From Candidatus Bathyarchaeota archaeon (GTDB taxonomy: Archaea > Thermoproteota > Bathyarchaeia > 40CM-2-53-6): a stretch of 64,000 bases of DNA. Of the stretch, positions 819 through 45,458 are shown piece after piece; positions within the stretch are counted from its first letter, which is position 1, and each line of letters starts with the position of its first letter. The stretch is taken from assembly GCA_963833125.1 (NCBI GenBank), contig CAWHWX010000034.1, forward strand, positions 43,840 through 107,839, in the 5' to 3' direction. The notes beneath the pieces were generated by a model. That model made no database searches, was not told the DNA's origin, and worked only from the letters and a program-made list of their open reading frames with translations. A program made the translations under genes and the position numbers.

Positions 819-1148
819 TTAATTTGTGGGTAGTGGGAGTCCCTTACAACCGACCTTTCCACGTACCCTACGGTTGAAATTCGGACATGTGAAACACTCC
901 ACAAATGAGACTTTCTTCAGCTTCACAGGACAATCCACCGCTTCCTTCTTCATCCGCGCAAGCATCTTGCCCTTGACTGCGCCTTTGATGGCCTCCAACG
1001 ACTCCTTTGGGCTTGGTATAGCCTTAGGCGGAGCGAAGATGTCGACCAGGTACTTGTCGTCGGCTCCCAGCTGAACGGCAGGCGCCTTGGTTTCGTCCGC
1101 GGAAGAGGGTGTGCTCATTGCGACCTCAAGCCTCAGGAAGGGCTCCAT
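819..1148 (-). CDS. Small hypothetical protein with C-terminal Cys4 metal-binding motif (true start possibly 1118)
   Basis: DCPVKLKKVSFVECFTCPNFNRRVRGKVGC motif; GAGGT upstream of the ATG at 1118. Confidence 0.6.
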   Translation of the reverse strand: MEPFLRLEVAMSTPSSADETKAPAVQLGADDKYLVDIFAPPKAIPSPKESLEAIKGAVKGKMLARMKKEAVDCPVKLKKVSFVECFTCPNFNRRVRGKVGCKGLPLPTN

Positions 1149-25926: not shown

Positions 25927-26885
25927 ATGTTCGGAACATTAATATACGCCGCACTTCGACACAAGAAAATCGGTTCCATCAAGGAGACTACGGCCAAAGT
26001 GCGGACACATGGAAGACTGACCCTCGCACTGTACCTGCTGCTCATACTCATTCTACCTTTGCTGATGGCTGGCATTCAAGCCGCCAAGGCAGATCAACCA
26101 CTAGTCCGAACTGAATCCGTACAACTCAACGTCGGCGACACGCTTGTCATCCGGAGCGACCACCTAGCCATACAACAGGTCTTCGTCGAAGGCAATTTCT
26201 CAACCACCCAGCTCATCAAACCCAGTCAATACCCAACAAATGACTTCGAACTCCAAGCTGGATCAGCCGGCGGCTACGGGGTAAGGGTGATTTTCAGTCA
26301 GGCGACCGACTACAATGTCAACCTATTCGTTAGGCAGGATGGAACCAACGCGATTTGAAAACAGTACGAGCTACTACGTATCCGGGGGGACACTCGAACT
26401 CGACGTGAGCGCTTACTTCAACCCAAGACCCATTGACATTGCAGCCGTTGCACCCTTGATTTCCCCATGGGACAGCTTAGTGGATTGGTTTGGCAGCTTC
26501 GGTCAGGCGTTCCCGTTGTGGGTCAAAGCCCTATACCTATTGCTAGGAGTACAATTTCTCGCTGTTGGCGGTTTGTGGATTCGACGCGAGACCGCAAGCC
26601 GAGAAGGGACCGCCCAGCGCTTGGACGGCGGGGACAAAGCCTACCTCTGGCTAGACATCGTTTACAAATTCCTACTAGCCTCGTTTGTCGCCATCGTGGC
26701 GATTATGGGAGGTGAGCTGATTCTACTATTCGTGTTGCGCTTCATGTTCCTGGTCTCAATCAACCTCCTTTCGCTATGGGATCTTTTCGTGGTGGGCTTT
26801 GCCGCGGGTGCGGTCATCATAGTCGTACCTGATCCGTTTCACGCTCGAGAAAGGTTTCGACCTGAAACCTGTGGAAAGTGAGTAA
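25927..26885 (+). CDS. Membrane protein with N-terminal TM/signal, extracellular beta domain and 3-4 C-terminal TM helices (two frameshifts)
   Basis: ORFs 25927-26358 and 26315-26881 join near 26350; corrected C-terminus reads YLIRFTLEKGFDLKPVESE* ending at 26885, overlapping the next start. Confidence 0.65.
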
Positions 26886-29643
26886 TATGGAGGGCAAGCT
26901 TGACGATATTGAAGCCAGCCTACAAACCACGCTAGAAACTGAATCCGAGGAAACCTGGTGGAAGAAAACTGCGCCATTGAGGTGGGCGAACTATGTTCCA
27001 CTCCGCCTCGTAGATAGGGAGTTTGTCAGGTGGCGAAAGTCAAGGATTTCGCCAAGGAAGTTTCGGAAGATACAACAACGGCTAGACCGTTTATACCCTC
27101 CAACCAGATTCTCCGCTACGAAGCTAATCGGTCGCGATAAAGAATACAACTTGCTGCTGGATTCATTCAGACTGCACGTCCTTAAACACCCAATGCTCAG
27201 AAAATGGTTCAACAAGGACGAACTTCCAAAAGCGATTTGCCTGACCGGTGAAAGTGGCACCGGGAAAACATTCCTAACAATGGTTTCCTTGAAACAGATG
27301 CTGCTTGAGGCTCACAAGAACGGAATCTACCTATCCCCCATCATCATCAAGGGATCAGACGTATTCTCAGAATACTACGGTAGGAGTACCAAGCAGTTAG
27401 GGAAGCTTCTGGAACAAGCCGCCTCAGCCCCTTCAGTCGTCTACATTGATGAATTCCAAAGCTTCGGAAGAAAAGTACGTGGGGAAACAGGAACTGAACT
27501 GGAGGATACCCGAGTACAGGACGAGATAAACCGTTGGCTTGACAAAATCACAACCAACGAAGCAAGAACGCTCGTCATAGTCGCTACCAATTCTTACGAA
27601 CAAACTCGCGAAGACATCCGCCGTCGACTCACACGTGTGGATCTAGATTCAGGCGTGACGAGGGAAATGCTGCTCGCTATTGTGGACGACAGAGCTACGG
27701 CTGAGGGTTGGAGAGGAGTTTCGTCAACAGAGATACTTGAGGTCCTCGAACGAGAAGCCGCCCTGCGAAGACATGGTTCGATCACTCCCAACGACATACT
27801 AGGAGTCTTCATAGAGGTGAAACGGGCCAAGGAAGTGCCCTTACTCGAAACGATCAGACGTTCAATGCCCGGTCCACTTTCGAAATGGACTAAGCCGATA
27901 TACAAGGTAAGTTTGGAAGATTTTGCTCAAGCCGCGCATTCAATGAAGTTCTACGTAGAGCGCGAAAAATCACGAGAAATTACCGACGCCGTCTACCTAG
28001 TTACGCCCAAGGCTAGGAGAGATGACATTGGTGGTCTTCATGACATAAGAGACAAAGTGTTAAACCACATTTCACTCGCTTTCAGTCGAAAAATGTCCCA
28101 ACTCGGTTATGCGTCCAACTGCAGGTTTCTACTATTCGGTCCACCAGGGACGGGAAAGACATTGCTCGCAATGGTAGCGGCGGCCGAGAACAAAGTCGCT
28201 TTCATCAAAGTAAGAGGAGGAGAACTGATGAGCGGGGCAACCTACATAGGAGAACCTGAGAAACGTATCAAAGATCTATTCGCTCTCGCCAGACAACGAA
28301 CCCCCTGCATTCTTTTCCTCGACGAAGCCGACGCGATCTTCTGGGGCGCAGATCCCACTGGAAACAAAATCTTGGCACAAGTGAAAGCCGAGCTCAGCGA
28401 GATCAAGCCTGATGAAGGAATCGTGGTCATCGCCGCTTCGAACAAAGAAAACCTCATCGACCAAGCAACCAGAGACAGGTTTGAACCCAACGTCTACTAC
28501 GTCCACCCCCCGCTGAACGATCAAGAATGGCATGAAGTGGTAGGCATCCACCTACGAAGATTCGATCGGTTCATACATCCAGAAGTCGATGCAGCGAAAA
28601 TCACACGTTTGCTTAGAATGCAACGAATCCTCAGCCCCAGAGCCGCATCTGAAACTATTGCAGAAGCCCACAGGCTATGGGCGTCGGAAATAAGCGCGGT
28701 CAGTGAATTGCGTGCTTGCAAAGATAACGGGGATAGGGAGGCGGTTGAAAAGAAGTATTCGACGGACCTAAGCAGGCTGCGTTCTGCGCTTGACGGCTCA
28801 GAGCATCCGCAATTGTCAATTGAGCAAATCGACGAAAGCAACTATCCGATGCGCCTCTACCACTTTGAAAAAGCGATTCAGGCACTTGAATCGAACCAGG
28901 CTAGACAAAGGAGAGAGATGGAAGAAGCATTAATCCTTACAACACCCACACCAGGAGCTTCCTTCGGGCTCTACGCTACCGAAGACGGAACCGGGGGCAT
29001 AATCACGGTTCAATGCTCAGTCAGGCCTATGATATCCGGCGAACGCCAAGTCTCTGTGACTGGGAATGCAACTTCAGCCGTAATCGGTCAAAGCGTCGTC
29101 TCAGATGAGTCAGTGCTTCAAAGTGCGGAAAACGCCACAGAAGCAATCAGCTCACTTCTATGGGCCGCGTCTCAAGTGGACCTAAGTCGGTTACACATAC
29201 ACTTCCAGATCAGGAGTATTTTGGAGGGCGCGCCTGGGCAAGGAGTTTCAGGGCCAAGCGCCGGGTTAGCTATGGTCTTAGCTCTCCTCTCAGAGCTGGC
29301 TGGACTTCCAATCTCCCCCGCCACTGTCGCAACCGGAACCATAGGGGTAAAGCTCGACGTGGGGCCGGTAGGTGGGCTGGGTGGCTACGGGACCCAAACC
29401 GGAAAGATCGTCGGGATCCTGAAATCCCAAAAGATTCGCATTACCGACTTGGTCCTGCCAGCAGCTAACTTCGAAGCTGCAGGTGACGAAATGCGGATTC
29501 TGACCGAGGAAGGAGTGAACGTACGTCCTGTGTCGGACGTATCGGAGTGTTTGAAGACAATCTTCGGTAAGGATATGTACGAACTAGTGGCTGAAATAAA
29601 GAAAAGGTTTGAGACAGCTCGGTTGGTAGCTCAGTCGTATTAG
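26878..29643 (+). CDS. Tandem AAA+ (Cdc48/VAT-like) ATPase fused to a Lon-type S16 protease domain
   Basis: D1 GESGTGKT/VYIDE/ATN; D2 GPPGTGKT/FLDEAD/ASN..RDRF; C-terminal SGPSAGLAM...TGTI...PVGG...K...LPAAN. Confidence 0.85.
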   Translation: MSNMEGKLDDIEASLQTTLETESEETWWKKTAPLRWANYVPLRLVDREFVRWRKSRISPRKFRKIQQRLDRLYPPTRFSATKLIGRDKEYNLLLDSFRLHVLKHPMLRKWFNKDELPKAICLTGESGTGKTFLTMVSLKQMLLEAHKNGIYLSPIIIKGSDVFSEYYGRSTKQLGKLLEQAASAPSVVYIDEFQSFGRKVRGETGTELEDTRVQDEINRWLDKITTNEARTLVIVATNSYEQTREDIRRRLTRVDLDSGVTREMLLAIVDDRATAEGWRGVSSTEILEVLEREAALRRHGSITPNDILGVFIEVKRAKEVPLLETIRRSMPGPLSKWTKPIYKVSLEDFAQAAHSMKFYVEREKSREITDAVYLVTPKARRDDIGGLHDIRDKVLNHISLAFSRKMSQLGYASNCRFLLFGPPGTGKTLLAMVAAAENKVAFIKVRGGELMSGATYIGEPEKRIKDLFALARQRTPCILFLDEADAIFWGADPTGNKILAQVKAELSEIKPDEGIVVIAASNKENLIDQATRDRFEPNVYYVHPPLNDQEWHEVVGIHLRRFDRFIHPEVDAAKITRLLRMQRILSPRAASETIAEAHRLWASEISAVSELRACKDNGDREAVEKKYSTDLSRLRSALDGSEHPQLSIEQIDESNYPMRLYHFEKAIQALESNQARQRREMEEALILTTPTPGASFGLYATEDGTGGIITVQCSVRPMISGERQVSVTGNATSAVIGQSVVSDESVLQSAENATEAISSLLWAASQVDLSRLHIHFQIRSILEGAPGQGVSGPSAGLAMVLALLSELAGLPISPATVATGTIGVKLDVGPVGGLGGYGTQTGKIVGILKSQKIRITDLVLPAANFEAAGDEMRILTEEGVNVRPVSDVSECLKTIFGKDMYELVAEIKKRFETARLVAQSY

Positions 29644-30573
29644 ATATCGAGCTTGAGCGCTTCTTTTAATCCCTTGTACCGGTTTCTGACTGTTACCTCG
29701 GTAACGTTAGCTACTTCAGCTATCTCTTTCTGGGTTTTCTTTTCCCCTTCGAGGACACACGCCACGTAGAGCGATGCCGCGGCCAAGCCCATTGGGTCTT
29801 TGCCTGCGACTATGCCTTTTCGTTTCGCCTCGTTGATGATTCTGATTGCACGCTGCTGGGTTGGCATCGAGATTTCGACTTTGGTTGCTATCTTTGAGAT
29901 GCATTTCACTGGATCCTCGACTGGCATTCTAAGGTCGAGTTCCCTGACGAGGAGTCGGTAGCATCTTGCTACGTCCTTCTTGCGGATCCTGCTCGCTGCG
30001 GATACGTCTTTGAGGGTTCTTGGTGTTTCGGACATTCGGCATGCGGCGTAGAGTGAAGCGGCGGCTATGGCTGCGATTGACCGTCCTCTTACCAGGCCGT
30101 TGTCCAGAGCTTTGCGGTAAACGATTGCGGCCCGTTCTTTGATGGAAGCGGGTATGTGTAGCATGTCAGTTAAGCGATCGAGTTCGGCCATCGCTTGGGC
30201 TAGGTTTCTGTCGGCTGAGGAGTGGACTCGTGTTCGTATCTGCCATTTTCTCAGGCGGAGCATTTCAAGTCTGGTTGCCAGGGGCAGTTGGCGACCGTAC
30301 GCGTCCTCGGTTCACCCGATCAATTACAGTTGATAATCCTTTGTCGTGAATGGAGAATGATGTTGGGATACCTACGCAACCTCGTTCATCCTTCTCTTCT
30401 TTGGTGAAGGCGCGCCATTCTGGACCTGTGTTTAACGAGTGTTCACTTATGACTAGGCCACAGTTGTGGCAACTGATCTCGCCGACATCGTAATCTTCTA
30501 CTAGGTTTGTGCTGCCACATTCGGGGCAGTTAGTTAACTTTCCAACTTTCCTTGTGGTTGCGCTTGTACTCAT
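29640..30573 (-). CDS. tfb: Transcription initiation factor IIB (frameshift near 30305)
   Basis: CPECG..CHNCG zinc ribbon, GPEWRAF, HDKGLST, RLRKWQ, LVRGRS, GKDPMGLAAA, VTEVTVRNRYK. Confidence 0.95.
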
Positions 30574-30851: not shown

Positions 30852-31151
30852 CTAGAATGCGTCCAGTTGTCGACGGAAGTACACGTTGCCTGATTCCCTT
30901 CTTACGAATCTTCCGTATCGGCCGCATTCGGACACGAGCATGGGTTGCTGGTCGTCGGGGGACGTGATCACTTCAATGTTGACCAGGCGGTATCGTGGCG
31001 GCTCCGGCTCCTGCCCGAACGTATGCCGGAAATCCTCAATCGTCATTTCCGGCGCCAATTGATCTTGCGTGTCGATGACGACGGAGATCGTTCGGATCGG
31101 GACCTTGATGACGATCTCAGCCGGCAAGGGGTCCGTTCTCCGATCTCCCAC
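30852..31151 (-). CDS. Hypothetical protein in the actin operon, with degenerate Cys motif
   Basis: Overlaps the 3' end of the upstream gene; C-terminus aligns without gaps to the Cys4 motif of ORF 819-1148. Confidence 0.6.
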   Translation of the reverse strand: MGDRRTDPLPAEIVIKVPIRTISVVIDTQDQLAPEMTIEDFRHTFGQEPEPPRYRLVNIEVITSPDDQQPMLVSECGRYGRFVRRESGNVYFRRQLDAF

Positions 31152-31791
31152 GCTTCGACAGAACCTCTAACCACGGGTTATTGCTGAAGTAAGAAGGAAG
31201 AGCTCCCAGGGACTCCCCCCTAGAGGGAGGGTCGGCTTGGTTGAAGTAACTGTGAAGTGCTTCGTCTTGGGCGATATTTGGGGCGAATACGGCGTTACGG
31301 GGGATCTCTTGGGGAGGCTGGGAAAGTTGAGGCGCCAACCCGCCAATCCGCGGGGTTTCGTGTGTGTTCTTGAGGTCGTCGCGTAGTTGGGTCAGGTTGC
31401 GTTCCATTTCAAAATACATCGACTTGAGCGTCGCAAGCTCGGTCACGAGTACTGGATCCTGTGGGAGCTGGTTTGTTTGTAACCGCGATGGTTGCAGTGG
31501 TTGCGGTGCTACCGCTTCGTCAATCCTTCGCTCATCGAAGAATAACAGCCCGATCCCATGAGCTCGGAAAATGGAGGCATCTATCGTTGCGCCCAAAAGC
31601 CGAGGCGCGGCGAGGTAGACGGTCTGATATGAATTCCTAAGCGAGGATAATTTCAGAACCGTGTCGATGATCGAATTTCGTTGAGCCAAATCCCGAGTCT
31701 TCAAAATCATGACATGAACGTTGTCTGCGCCGACGAGAAATGAGAGACCCGCCTGATTCGGATCTTGGTTGGGGGTATGCTGCACGCCCAT
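31117..31791 (-). CDS. Arcadin-2-like protein (putative actin-binding/depolymerising factor)
   Basis: Directly downstream of the actin gene; globular N-domain, coiled coil, low-complexity linker, terminal helix NNPWLEVLSKRG resembling the recalled arcadin-2 C-terminal NxWxxIL motif. Confidence 0.6.
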   Translation of the reverse strand: MGVQHTPNQDPNQAGLSFLVGADNVHVMILKTRDLAQRNSIIDTVLKLSSLRNSYQTVYLAAPRLLGATIDASIFRAHGIGLLFFDERRIDEAVAPQPLQPSRLQTNQLPQDPVLVTELATLKSMYFEMERNLTQLRDDLKNTHETPRIGGLAPQLSQPPQEIPRNAVFAPNIAQDEALHSYFNQADPPSRGESLGALPSYFSNNPWLEVLSKRGRSENGPLAG

Positions 31792-31831
31792 CGCGAGAAA
31801 GTAGTGGAGAATCCTTTCTTCAACCGGAAGG

Positions 31832-33105
31832 CTAGTTTGAAACCTTCATCCACCCCTCCAACCGTTGCCAATCCCAGTCATAGTTCTCTGGAACGGCGAA
31901 ACCGTAGATTATGCACCCATGCCAAACCGAGAACTGCGGTGAACTGGTCATCTTGACTGAAACATTCTTGATACCGCGATCCCGCAGCAGAAGACGCACC
32001 TTCGCGGGAGCGTCAACTGCGATCTCTTGTAACTTGGGCGGTACGGTCCAGCTGAAATTTCCACCCGACAAGAGGACTTCGCGATAGAGCATGGGTTGGA
32101 GTTCAACTGGGCAACGTTCAACCGAGGCGATTATCGCCTCACCGAAATCCAGCATACCCCTGAAGACCGTGTCGCCCATCTTGACGTCCTTCGGTCTCGG
32201 CATTCCGCAGGCTGAAGTAGCTCTCGAAAATCTCGTGGTTCGGATTGAACACATATTCACCGATAAGATATCTTGACCACGAGTCCTTCTCAAGGTCTAT
32301 CTCAACACGCATTTCCGGGGACTCTGTACTTTGCTCTGGATTTTCGCGGGAATTTCTTTGCGTCCGCGATTGCGCTGTCCAGGTTTCCGGGGACTAGGCC
32401 AATGTTTTCCTTGACCTTCCTTACTACCGCTTCCTCATTTGCCAGGTCGCCATAACCAGAATCCTTGAGGATCTCCGATGTTATCGCATTCGCGTCTCCG
32501 CCGCCCCGGTTCAACGCTACTTGTGCGGCTCGGATGGGATATTTCGAGATTGGGCACACTTGACTGTTTCCATGTCCGGACTCGATAACCACACAAGTAG
32601 TGACTCCATGGCCGATGGCGACGGCGAATGGTTGCGGGATGACGGTGACTGCTCTGATCCTTCCGTGGTTATTGTCTTGGAATAACCCAAGCAGTTTCTC
32701 GTACATATAGCGGGGGGAAACTGATGACAGGGACGCGACTACATAGTATCCTTGAAAGCCATTATTTGGTTCAGGTTTGAAGGCGTCTAAGCTGTAGGAG
32801 GATAGGCTGCTTACTCACCGCCAGGCTTGGTCGTCGCTTTTGTCGATCATGCCGTTGCGCATGGGATAGATCAGGCGACTTGACAGATCTTCGGCGGACT
32901 GCAAGTAAAGAGGCACGTCTTCCCCCACAATCACGTCGGATGTCGGTTCGAATGCCTTGTAGATGACGGAGCTTTTGTCGGGGAAATAGCCCCGGTTGTT
33001 TACGATTCTTGGATTTTCGCCAAGGGTTATTGGGCCAAATTTGAAGTCGCTTGTGCCGAAGTCCATAGCGAAGGTATAGTGGCTTCGATAGTTGTCGCCG
33101 CTCAT
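31832..33105 (-). CDS. Crenactin-type archaeal actin (split by several indels)
   Basis: YTFAMDFGTS..KFGPITL, YPMRNG, AVTVIPQPFAVAI, ESGHGNSQVCPIS, ALNRGGGDANAIT.EILKD, LSGGNFSW, PQFSVW.G.IIYG, EGW, collinear with crenactin. Confidence 0.88.
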
Positions 33106-33281
33106 ACCAATGCAGCTCCTTCAATCACGAGTTTCTTGCCATCAATCCGAACGACAACTTCCTGATCAGGGATGAATGGAAAGAGTGAGTCTTTGACAAC
33201 ATCTGCGGGTATGTACAGAATCCCCGTCTTGCTTCTGTCGCCTCGACTGGGGAGAATAATTTTCGCAAATCCTTCAAGCAA
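33102..33281 (-). CDS. 59-aa AbrB/SpoVT-like swapped-hairpin protein (not in ORF track), coupled to the actin gene
   Basis: MLEGFAKIILPSRGDRSKTGILYIPADVVKDSLFPFIPDQEVVVRIDGKKLVIEGAALV; GGTGA upstream of TTG; stop overlaps actin start (ATGA). Confidence 0.7.
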   Translation of the reverse strand: MLEGFAKIILPSRGDRSKTGILYIPADVVKDSLFPFIPDQEVVVRIDGKKLVIEGAALV

Positions 33282-45203: not shown

Positions 45204-45458
45204 TTGAAAGAAGCCGTTGCTAGTTTTGTGGTAACGAAAAAGAGGATGCCGGACGGACGGGTGTACGAGTCGCCTCGAATTTACCTCCCGACCAAGCTTA
45301 CGACAGATTCAAACTTCCCTTTCACGAAGGAATCGTTGAGGCTGTACGTGAGAGTATCCGGAAAGAGGCTGATGGTGGAGCGAGCCGCCCCGACCGTGCT
45401 CAAGAGGTTCGGACGATTCAAGAGGAAAGTCCGTAAGGCTAGGTCGAGGAAACGCTAG
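45204..45458 (+). CDS. AbrB-like small DNA-binding protein
   Basis: RIYLPTKLTTDSNFPF...VRVSGKRLMVE; shares motif with 33102-33281. Confidence 0.6.
   Translation: MKEAVASFVVTKKRMPDGRVYESPRIYLPTKLTTDSNFPFTKESLRLYVRVSGKRLMVERAAPTVLKRFGRFKRKVRKARSRKR

Follow-up and report, generated by a model that had tools for sequence, protein, structure and literature searches.

A stretch of 64,000 nucleotides (nt) from Candidatus Bathyarchaeota archaeon (hereafter the window, in whose numbering all positions are given) carries at 30852-33281 of its minus strand four close-packed genes, taken from the list of open reading frames (ORFs), in the order p59, actin, p224 and p99. This unit is a variant of the known crenactin/arcadin-2 system with two lineage-specific small partners. 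With good confidence, we regard it as a Bathyarchaeia crenactin cytoskeleton module that most likely works in the live organism, and the breaks that interrupt its actin gene as most likely errors of the assembly. Throughout, G000 denotes the window's genome, other G numbers denote other genomes and L numbers denote related loci.

Identity of the actin and p224, and conservation of the unit

The sequence-only reading had joined three ORF fragments into a single actin with DFGTS, ESGHG and LSGG motifs. All three fragments are present as claimed and are collinear with an intact orthologue of 423 amino acids (aa) in the closest relative, G019 (L013:4670-5938). The motifs DFGTS, ESGHG and LSGGN, which we take to be the phosphate- and adenosine-binding motifs of the actin fold, can be read in the translations and are invariant in the actin alignment (A3). 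Identity to the G019 protein is 94-97% for the first two fragments and 83% for the third (BLAST span), and once the window is read in the register of the orthologue, 21 of 423 residues differ. The G019 actin matches the solved Pyrobaculum crenactin (4cj7, 5ly3 and 5mw1) with an E-value of 5.9e-108, its residues 3-419 aligning with residues 5-428 of 4cj7; the best PDB matches after crenactin are eukaryotic actins at ~1e-9, and the Pfam Actin match is 1.5e-14. On the NCBIfam crenactin model (NF053560) the same protein scores 544.4 bits, under the equivalog cut-off of 630, as does a Thermoproteales-titled record (545.3 bits); the model is evidently tuned to Thermoproteaceae. The window actin is a full-length crenactin homologue.

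This is the one actin copy of G000, and actin is found in 31 of the 41 related genomes searched, a count that includes G000. Among the 30 other genomes, the gene is an open frame of 387-519 aa in 26 and is cut or split in four. In a tree of 81 crenactin-family rows, built by a quick method with a midpoint root and with Asgard and eukaryotic actins not among the rows, the G019 actin falls within a 16-row genus clade (support 100) that is nested among bathyarchaeal rows, and Thermoproteaceae and Thermofilaceae lie on the other side of the midpoint root. By the record titles of 80 related loci, the near relatives of the window belong to Bathyarchaeia. The same bathyarchaeal actin unit also occurs, at 67-87% identity, in four loci titled Acidiferrales, Acidoferrum, Methylomirabilota and Thermoplasmata (L024, L031, L098 and L045), which are probably mislabelled bins.

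The 224-aa protein encoded directly downstream, p224, ends in NNPWLEVLSKRG and had been put forward as the arcadin-2 equivalent, an assignment that is borne out by homology. A profile of 11 order-level p224 orthologues (A2) aligns over 169 columns, C-terminal helix included, with the canonical arcadin-2 profile (A12) at an hhalign probability of 98.0% (E = 2.5e-13), and the order-only profile recovers canonical arcadin-2 beside crenactin in L115-L117. A search of 1.84 billion proteins with A2 gave 308 representatives at E <= 0.001. When 150 sequences, i.e. the window p224 and 149 of the listed profile matches, were scanned with NCBIfam, the Rkd2 model (NF053561) matched 73 of them at E <= 0.001 with a best E of 2.3e-35. 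The same model matches the orthologous p224 proteins from G039, G031 and G030 at E of 3-5e-4 (model positions 22, 64 and 28, respectively, to 196), and over 401 genomes of the phylum it places 11 above the cut-off, all of family f30, with a graded series below. In the alignment common to p224 and canonical arcadin-2 (A7, for example NNPWLEVLSKRGR aligned with ENEWVRILRSRGK), residues Y59, G79 and G81 of the N-domain are invariant, and across bathyarchaeal and canonical proteins the terminal helix has an invariant N205, W207 and L211 along with an almost invariant R214 (A2 and A7); the C-terminal helix motif common to both is N-x-W-x3-L-x2-R. The PDB sequence-profile search with p224 returned only noise and coiled-coil matches. 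By these profile comparisons, p224 is a distant but true arcadin-2 homologue. Canonical arcadin-2 is described as a conserved core joined through a variable linker to a C-terminal helix that is likewise conserved (Izore et al. 2016, PMC5173319). The same work showed that the 17 residues at its C-terminus bind in the hydrophobic groove and cause filaments to depolymerise.

Arcadin-2-like genes were also observed in L118 and L119 (G226, G098), with E of about 1e-41 to the broad profile and products ending DNPWLxIL, in 16-kb regions that hold no actin match; arcadin-2 relatives can thus occur apart from crenactin.

The tight packing of the four genes ahead of tfb, as originally described, is confirmed by the distances between them. 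The p59 stop and the actin ATG overlap by 4 nt (33102-33105), an arrangement seen in the genus, the gap from the actin stop to the p224 ATG is 40 nt, the p224 and p99 ORFs share 31117-31151, and a spacer of 278 nt lies between p99 and the start of tfb. The neighbourhood comparison that had been suggested recovers all four genes in the same order in five genus-level loci, and among five loci of the order's other families four have all four genes, with L021 being without p59. Such recurrence indicates that the unit is not a chance arrangement, and the four genes are a conserved close-packed unit.

At a wider scale, 80 loci with actin were found, which are related to one another and hence do not provide independent counts. 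An arcadin-2-like gene lies directly downstream of actin in 68 of these, across Thermoproteota, and the 12 without it comprise three at a contig edge and nine with room for the gene. The p99 gene directly follows the arcadin-2-like gene in 51 of the 80 loci; four of the 17 loci that have arcadin-2 and are without p99 are at a contig edge, and two have <250 nt left. Upstream of actin, p59 is present in 36 of the 80 loci, abutting in 25 and about 500 nt away in 11. Two loci from other bathyarchaeal families have an additional ~180-aa gene between p59 and actin that overlaps both (L047:4460-5014 and L054:4445-4987), giving a five-gene unit; this gene has no Pfam match, and a search of G000 with one protein query did not find it.

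Table 1. Coordinates of the genes of the actin unit, of tfb and of the disrupting changes in the window
Feature	Position	Strand	Remarks
p59	33102-33281	-	59 aa, TTG start; first gene of the unit; ORF
Crenactin-type actin	31832-33105	-	~423 codons; broken in the window's assembly
Actin ORF fragments	32815-33105, 32302-32706, 31832-32293	-	From the ORF list
In-frame TGA in actin	32815-32817	-	CGG TGA GTA versus CGA GTA GTA (Val) in G019
First 1-nt insertion in actin	32312-32316, about 32314	-	Exact base ambiguous; alignment A1 column 797 versus G019; tblastn pieces change frame
Second 1-nt insertion in actin	32209	-	Alignment A1 column 902 versus G019
p224	31117-31791	-	Distant arcadin-2 homologue (profile comparison); N-terminal globular domain, coiled-coil and low-complexity linker, conserved C-terminal helix LPSYFSNNPWLEVLSKRGR
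In-frame upstream extension of p224	31792-31845	-	First helix SLPVEERILHYFLA; overlaps the actin 3' end, +1 frame
p99	30852-31151	-	99 aa; last gene of the unit; uncharacterised family
tfb (transcription factor B)	29640-30573	-	Pfam Zn_Ribbon_TF and TFIIB; split by a 1-nt insertion at 30306
1-nt insertion, JAB/MPN gene	33629		Versus intact orthologue
1-nt insertion, tfb	30306		Versus intact orthologue
1-nt insertion, roughly 300-aa gene	26825		Versus intact orthologue
1-nt insertion, roughly 152-aa gene	44401		Versus intact orthologue

The tfb gene adjoins the unit within the genus only. A TTTTTATA element can be read in the spacer between p99 and tfb, and tfb is predicted probably to have its own promoter. 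Convergent with tfb, and kept beside it within the genus, is an intact 921-aa protein (26878-29643, plus strand) in which two AAA+-like ATP-binding motifs and a Lon-protease-like C-terminus were read by eye.

The Arcade cluster and the two small partners

The Arcade cluster of Pyrobaculum/Thermoproteaceae is given as arcadin-1, crenactin, arcadin-2, arcadin-3 and arcadin-4 (Ettema et al. 2011, via PMC5173319). The canonical order is seen in L115, where arcadin-1 (identical to 5ly5_A), crenactin, arcadin-2 (320.9 bits) and arcadin-3 (113 bits) are followed by a 794-aa ORF in the arcadin-4 position, the L101 counterpart of which scores 333 bits on Rkd4. The window unit is like this cluster in that its actin is of the crenactin family and is followed immediately by an arcadin-2 homologue that has the three-part layout and the C-terminal motif of the canonical protein. 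Unlike the cluster, it has no homologue of arcadin-1, arcadin-3 or arcadin-4 and has p59 and p99 in the flanking positions, the actin and arcadin-2 of its lineage are below the NCBIfam equivalog cut-offs, and its host is represented by a metagenome-assembled genome of Bathyarchaeia, with relatives' records that stem from peat, soil and sediment metagenomes and not from a hyperthermophile. The arcadin-1 and arcadin-3 profiles match Thermoproteaceae, Thermofilaceae and two Thermoprotei-type loci, with arcadin-3 also matching the unclassified Thermoproteota locus L102; in the window and in bathyarchaeal loci neither has a match at E <= 10. None of the loci with arcadin-1 or arcadin-3 is matched by the profiles of p99 and p59, and p99 and arcadin-3 never occur together in the 80-locus sample. 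Arcadin-4 was not found in G000, in which Rkd4 gives only generic SMC/Rad50-type N-terminal matches elsewhere in the genome.

Parts of this system have been described in related archaea. Crenactin was reported from MCG/Bathyarchaeota single-cell genomes in 2015 (PMC4571567), and an arCOG survey places arcadin-1, -2 and -4 outside Thermoproteales, in Culexarchaeia and Caldarchaeales (PMC9723716). The functions of arcadin-1, -3 and -4 are called still unclear in a further paper (PMC10936438). In the literature search, no description of arcadins in Bathyarchaeia was found in titles or abstracts among the matches listed. The earlier suggestion of a variant module with new accessory factors holds at sequence level, in that neither p59 nor p99 resembles arcadin-1 or arcadin-3, and its novelty is smaller than supposed, as bathyarchaeal crenactin and a wider distribution of arcadin-2 are already in print. 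The three-gene core of the window is shared with Culexarchaeia, where actin is followed by a p224-like gene and then a p99-like one in the Culexmicrobium loci L056 and L072; unlike in the window, p59 is not found in these two loci.

The first of the two small partners, p59, was found only in Bathyarchaeia-type loci. Earlier described as AbrB-like, it is weakly so: 15 of 37 members of its family show a weak match to Pfam PF04014 (MazE_antitoxin; best E 0.0011), and the window copy itself has no PF04014 match at E <= 1. The monomer model, of low confidence (predicted local distance difference test, pLDDT, of 65), has the order strand-strand-helix-strand-strand, and the top Foldseek rows obtained with it are MazE, VapB and AbrB, with template modelling (TM) scores of 0.44-0.49 but E >= 0.24. 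The PDB sequence-profile search with p59 gave only noise. An 84-aa paralogue of p59 is encoded elsewhere in the window (45204-45458, plus strand; E = 5.5e-7 to the p59 profile); it has no Pfam match, and its strongly basic C-terminal tail fits nucleic-acid binding.

The second partner, p99, belongs to a family of 325 clusters at 90% identity, and among the 120 of these clusters that were listed no Pfam domain is recorded; the names among the matches listed are all 'hypothetical protein' except for one 'phage-related protein'. Pfam gave no consistent family over 50 p99 sequences, and the PDB sequence-profile search gave only noise. The AlphaFold model (50 sequences) mixes strands and helices at a pLDDT of 89.2 and a predicted TM score of 0.71. 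No match to the PDB was obtained with this model in Foldseek (best E 0.34), and a wide fold search (VIA) listed 77 chains with Z >= 2, the best being 2.7, and no chain with Z >= 5, a missing fold match that does not prove a new fold. Most p99 lineages have four conserved Cys residues (C-P-x-D ... E-C-x-x-C-P-x-F ... C), of which the window's genus keeps one, its p99 reading TSPDD...ECGRY...YFR where others (loci L039-L088) have TCPED...ECGxCP...C. A 109-aa ORF at 819-1148 (minus strand) has a C-terminus, C-P...E-C-x-x-C-P-x-F-x-R-R...C, like the Cys module of p99 (profile E 0.0027), a likeness that suggests a common small metal-binding module in this ORF and the p99 family.

The positional correspondence between p59/actin/p224/p99 and the arcadin-1/crenactin/arcadin-2/arcadin-3 of L115 raises the alternative that p59 is a shortened arcadin-1 and p99 a divergent arcadin-3, in which case the unit would be a plain, diverged Arcade cluster that has lost arcadin-4. 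In line with it, p59 residues 16-35 align with arcadin-1 residues 15-34 at 35% identity in hhalign, and arcadin-1 (5ly5) appears at rank 37 of the p59 Foldseek list (E 6.8, TMq 0.38, from the pLDDT 65 model). However, the hhalign values themselves are 2.1% and 1.6% for p59 against arcadin-1, which is not significant, 0.7% for p99 against arcadin-3 (NCBIfam NF053562, Rkd3; no NCBIfam match for p99 at E <= 1) and 0.3% for p99 against arcadin-1. The original observation that neither small gene resembles arcadin-1 is therefore upheld and extends to arcadin-3, all values being 0.03-2.1%. Moreover, across the 80 loci no arcadin-1 is found at E <= 10 outside Thermofilaceae and Thermoprotei-type loci, arcadin-3 adding only L102, and p99 has about 90 aa and a mixed beta/alpha model as against the 56 aa of arcadin-3. 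We consider a diverged Arcade cluster very unlikely.

A somewhat less improbable, though still unlikely, alternative is that only actin and arcadin-2 cooperate, with p59 being an ordinary AbrB-type regulator or antitoxin-like protein and p99 an unrelated zinc-binding protein that merely share the transcription unit. The p59 paralogue within the window, the recurrence of the p99 C-terminal Cys module at 819-1148, the restriction of p59 to Bathyarchaeia-type loci and the lack of similarity of both proteins to arcadin-1 or arcadin-3 are all in agreement with such bystanders. On the other hand, the 51 loci with p99 after the arcadin-2-like gene carry Bathyarchaeia, Culexarchaeia, Methanomethylicia and Nitrososphaerota titles and usually have the two ORFs overlapping, the p99 family is found by its profile (A9) elsewhere in these loci only as a partial copy at the contig end of L032 and one weak match in the window, and in the genus p59 overlaps the beginning of actin with its stop codon. 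A prediction of the actin, p224 and p99 complex, in which p99 scored a median of 0.23 against a mark of 0.32 without controls, has no bearing on binding either way.

Breaks in the actin gene

Three-frame translation resolves the first break of the actin gene into one in-frame stop and the second into two successive frame changes, with 32209-32314 (~35 codons) being read in the third frame, and the true extent of the middle fragment is 32302-32814. Base 32209 is absent from related metagenome contigs in all three runs that cover it (X1, X4 and X5); positions 32816 and 32817 also differ in the contigs of these runs, the related contigs reading GTA and not TGA. The first frameshift site (about 32314) is bridged by no related contig in four runs. 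Between the window actin and that of G019, the ratio of nonsynonymous to synonymous substitution rates (dN/dS) is 0.045 at a dS of 0.56, an indicator of strong purifying selection on the gene for essentially the whole divergence.

The same type of lesion recurs in neighbouring genes. A frameshift survey of the syntenic part of the window (roughly 20 kb) was carried out using orthologous proteins of three relatives as probes, with antisense shadow ORFs being dropped. By our count, single-base shifts split five of the ~14 genes compared with orthologues, and all six shifts consist of one extra base in the window (Table 1); in the case of tfb, an intact 310-aa orthologue aligns across two frames. 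The G000 assembly comprises 39 contigs at 87.8% completeness, and split actin matches are present also in G016 and G017, other few-contig assemblies of the genus. As the orthologues are intact, four neighbouring genes have the same one-base insertion and dN/dS is 0.045, the actin breaks are likely due to assembly error. The TGA and the two frameshifts are most likely errors of an insertion-prone assembly, and annotation of an actin pseudogene in the window should be avoided.

Two further explanations of the TGA were considered and dropped. The sequence GGTGAGT at this site recalls a eukaryote-type splice donor, but the frame runs straight through and the orthologues are collinear; recoding of the TGA was set aside on the grounds that relatives have GTA at the site.

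Several points weigh against the reading of the unit as a functional crenactin module with an actin broken only in the assembly. The source reads were sought in public runs, the best of which matches 0.09 of the sampled words, and the contigs used for comparison stem from relatives that are 90-95% alike and not from the source itself. The TGA is a two-base change and no indel, and suits the pattern of insertion errors less well. With respect to the partners, the window p224 has no match to NCBIfam Rkd2 at E <= 0.001, and the G019 p224 reaches 12.1 bits (E 0.11) on a model with an equivalog cut-off of 290 bits. The nine loci that have room but no arcadin-2-like gene (Calditenuis, Methanodesulfokora and others) imply that the actin/arcadin-2 pairing is not universal. 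In addition, p59 is placed only weakly in the MazE/AbrB fold.

Those points that concern the TGA and the unseen source reads, together with the presence of three disruptive lesions within 1.27 kb, would also suit a true actin pseudogene in this strain, with the stop and both frameshifts being real and the module decaying. We find this highly improbable, since the same one-base type of insertion occurs in four neighbours, tfb included, the actin has evolved under purifying selection to the extent given above, p224 and p99 downstream are intact, and the majority of orthologues elsewhere are open over their full length.

Start of p224 and possible working of the module

The junction between actin and p224 is unusual in the window and some of its relatives. 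In 10 of the 17 genus sequences, the arcadin-2 frame starts from a GTG or TTG located 8-11 nt ahead of the actin stop, and the protein of these 10 begins with a conserved helix, LPIEDRLLHYFLA, the counterpart of the canonical arcadin-2 N-terminal helix. In the window and in L023, L028, L029, L031 and L035, this start is replaced by CAA, TTA, GCA or GTT, and no ATG, GTG or TTG is present between the preceding TGA and the first helix in any of the six. The frame of the first helix is +1 relative to actin and crosses the actin stop codon. Over the 13 helix codons of the six start-less sequences, the differences at codon positions 1, 2 and 3 number 58, 5 and 110, respectively, a pattern which indicates that the upstream segment still evolves as coding sequence; the helix arginine is encoded in these sequences by AGG, AGA, CGT and CGG.

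The first helix has three possible readings. Initiation may take place at a non-canonical codon. A +1 shift may occur at the actin stop, in which case some actin-arcadin-2 fusion protein would be produced. Finally, the conserved ATG 40 nt downstream may be used, which leaves the conservation of the helix unexplained.

In analogy to Pyrobaculum, the bathyarchaeal actin would polymerise with ATP into double-stranded filaments, and the C-terminal helix of p224 would enter the hydrophobic groove of the actin monomer. By competing there with the D-loop of the following subunit, it would sequester monomers and depolymerise filaments. In the place held by arcadin-3 in Thermoproteaceae, p99 probably partners arcadin-2 or actin in stoichiometric amounts and, judging from the ORF overlap, may be translationally coupled to p224. 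A small MazE/AbrB-like dimer is envisaged for p59, which would probably bind nucleic acid and either autoregulate the operon or link filaments to DNA. Plasmid segregation systems such as ParMRC and AlfAB likewise pair an actin-like ATPase with a small DNA-binding adaptor, and the window unit is like these in having a small, possibly DNA-binding dimer (p59) beside, and possibly translationally coupled with, an actin-family ATPase. The two are unrelated in sequence, p59 looks MazE/AbrB-like whereas ParR is a ribbon-helix-helix protein, and the resemblance lies in the possible working and not in membership.

A search for the tubulin/FtsZ Pfam family found no member in G000 (87.8% complete). Members were found in five of 22 genus genomes and not in the other 17, several of which are 98-100% complete, and the six relatives of 81-96% completeness that are without actin all have tubulin/FtsZ; these counts cover G000 and 40 kin genomes and carry no statistical test. 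G000 also has a weak Snf7 match. A bolder proposal, to which we attach little probability, is that in this genus actin and arcadin-2 are coupled in translation, by reinitiation at a non-start codon or by a +1 shift, and form with p99 a self-limiting module unlike that of Pyrobaculum, which may serve division where no FtsZ is found.

To our knowledge, crenactin and arcadin-2 are the sole archaeal actin-regulator pair outside Asgard for which the mechanism has been solved, the work having been done on hyperthermophiles. The conservation of the pair and of the C-terminal helix motif across Thermoproteota implies that control by arcadin-2 is probably old and no speciality of Thermoproteales. Both p59 and p99 are candidate new components of the actin system that are conserved, uncharacterised, small and easy to express, and for p99 the model is confident and lacks any neighbour in the PDB. 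Finally, because tubulin/FtsZ was not found in 17 of the 22 genus genomes, the actin module may have a part in the division or shape of cells in a lineage that is abundant in soil and peat.

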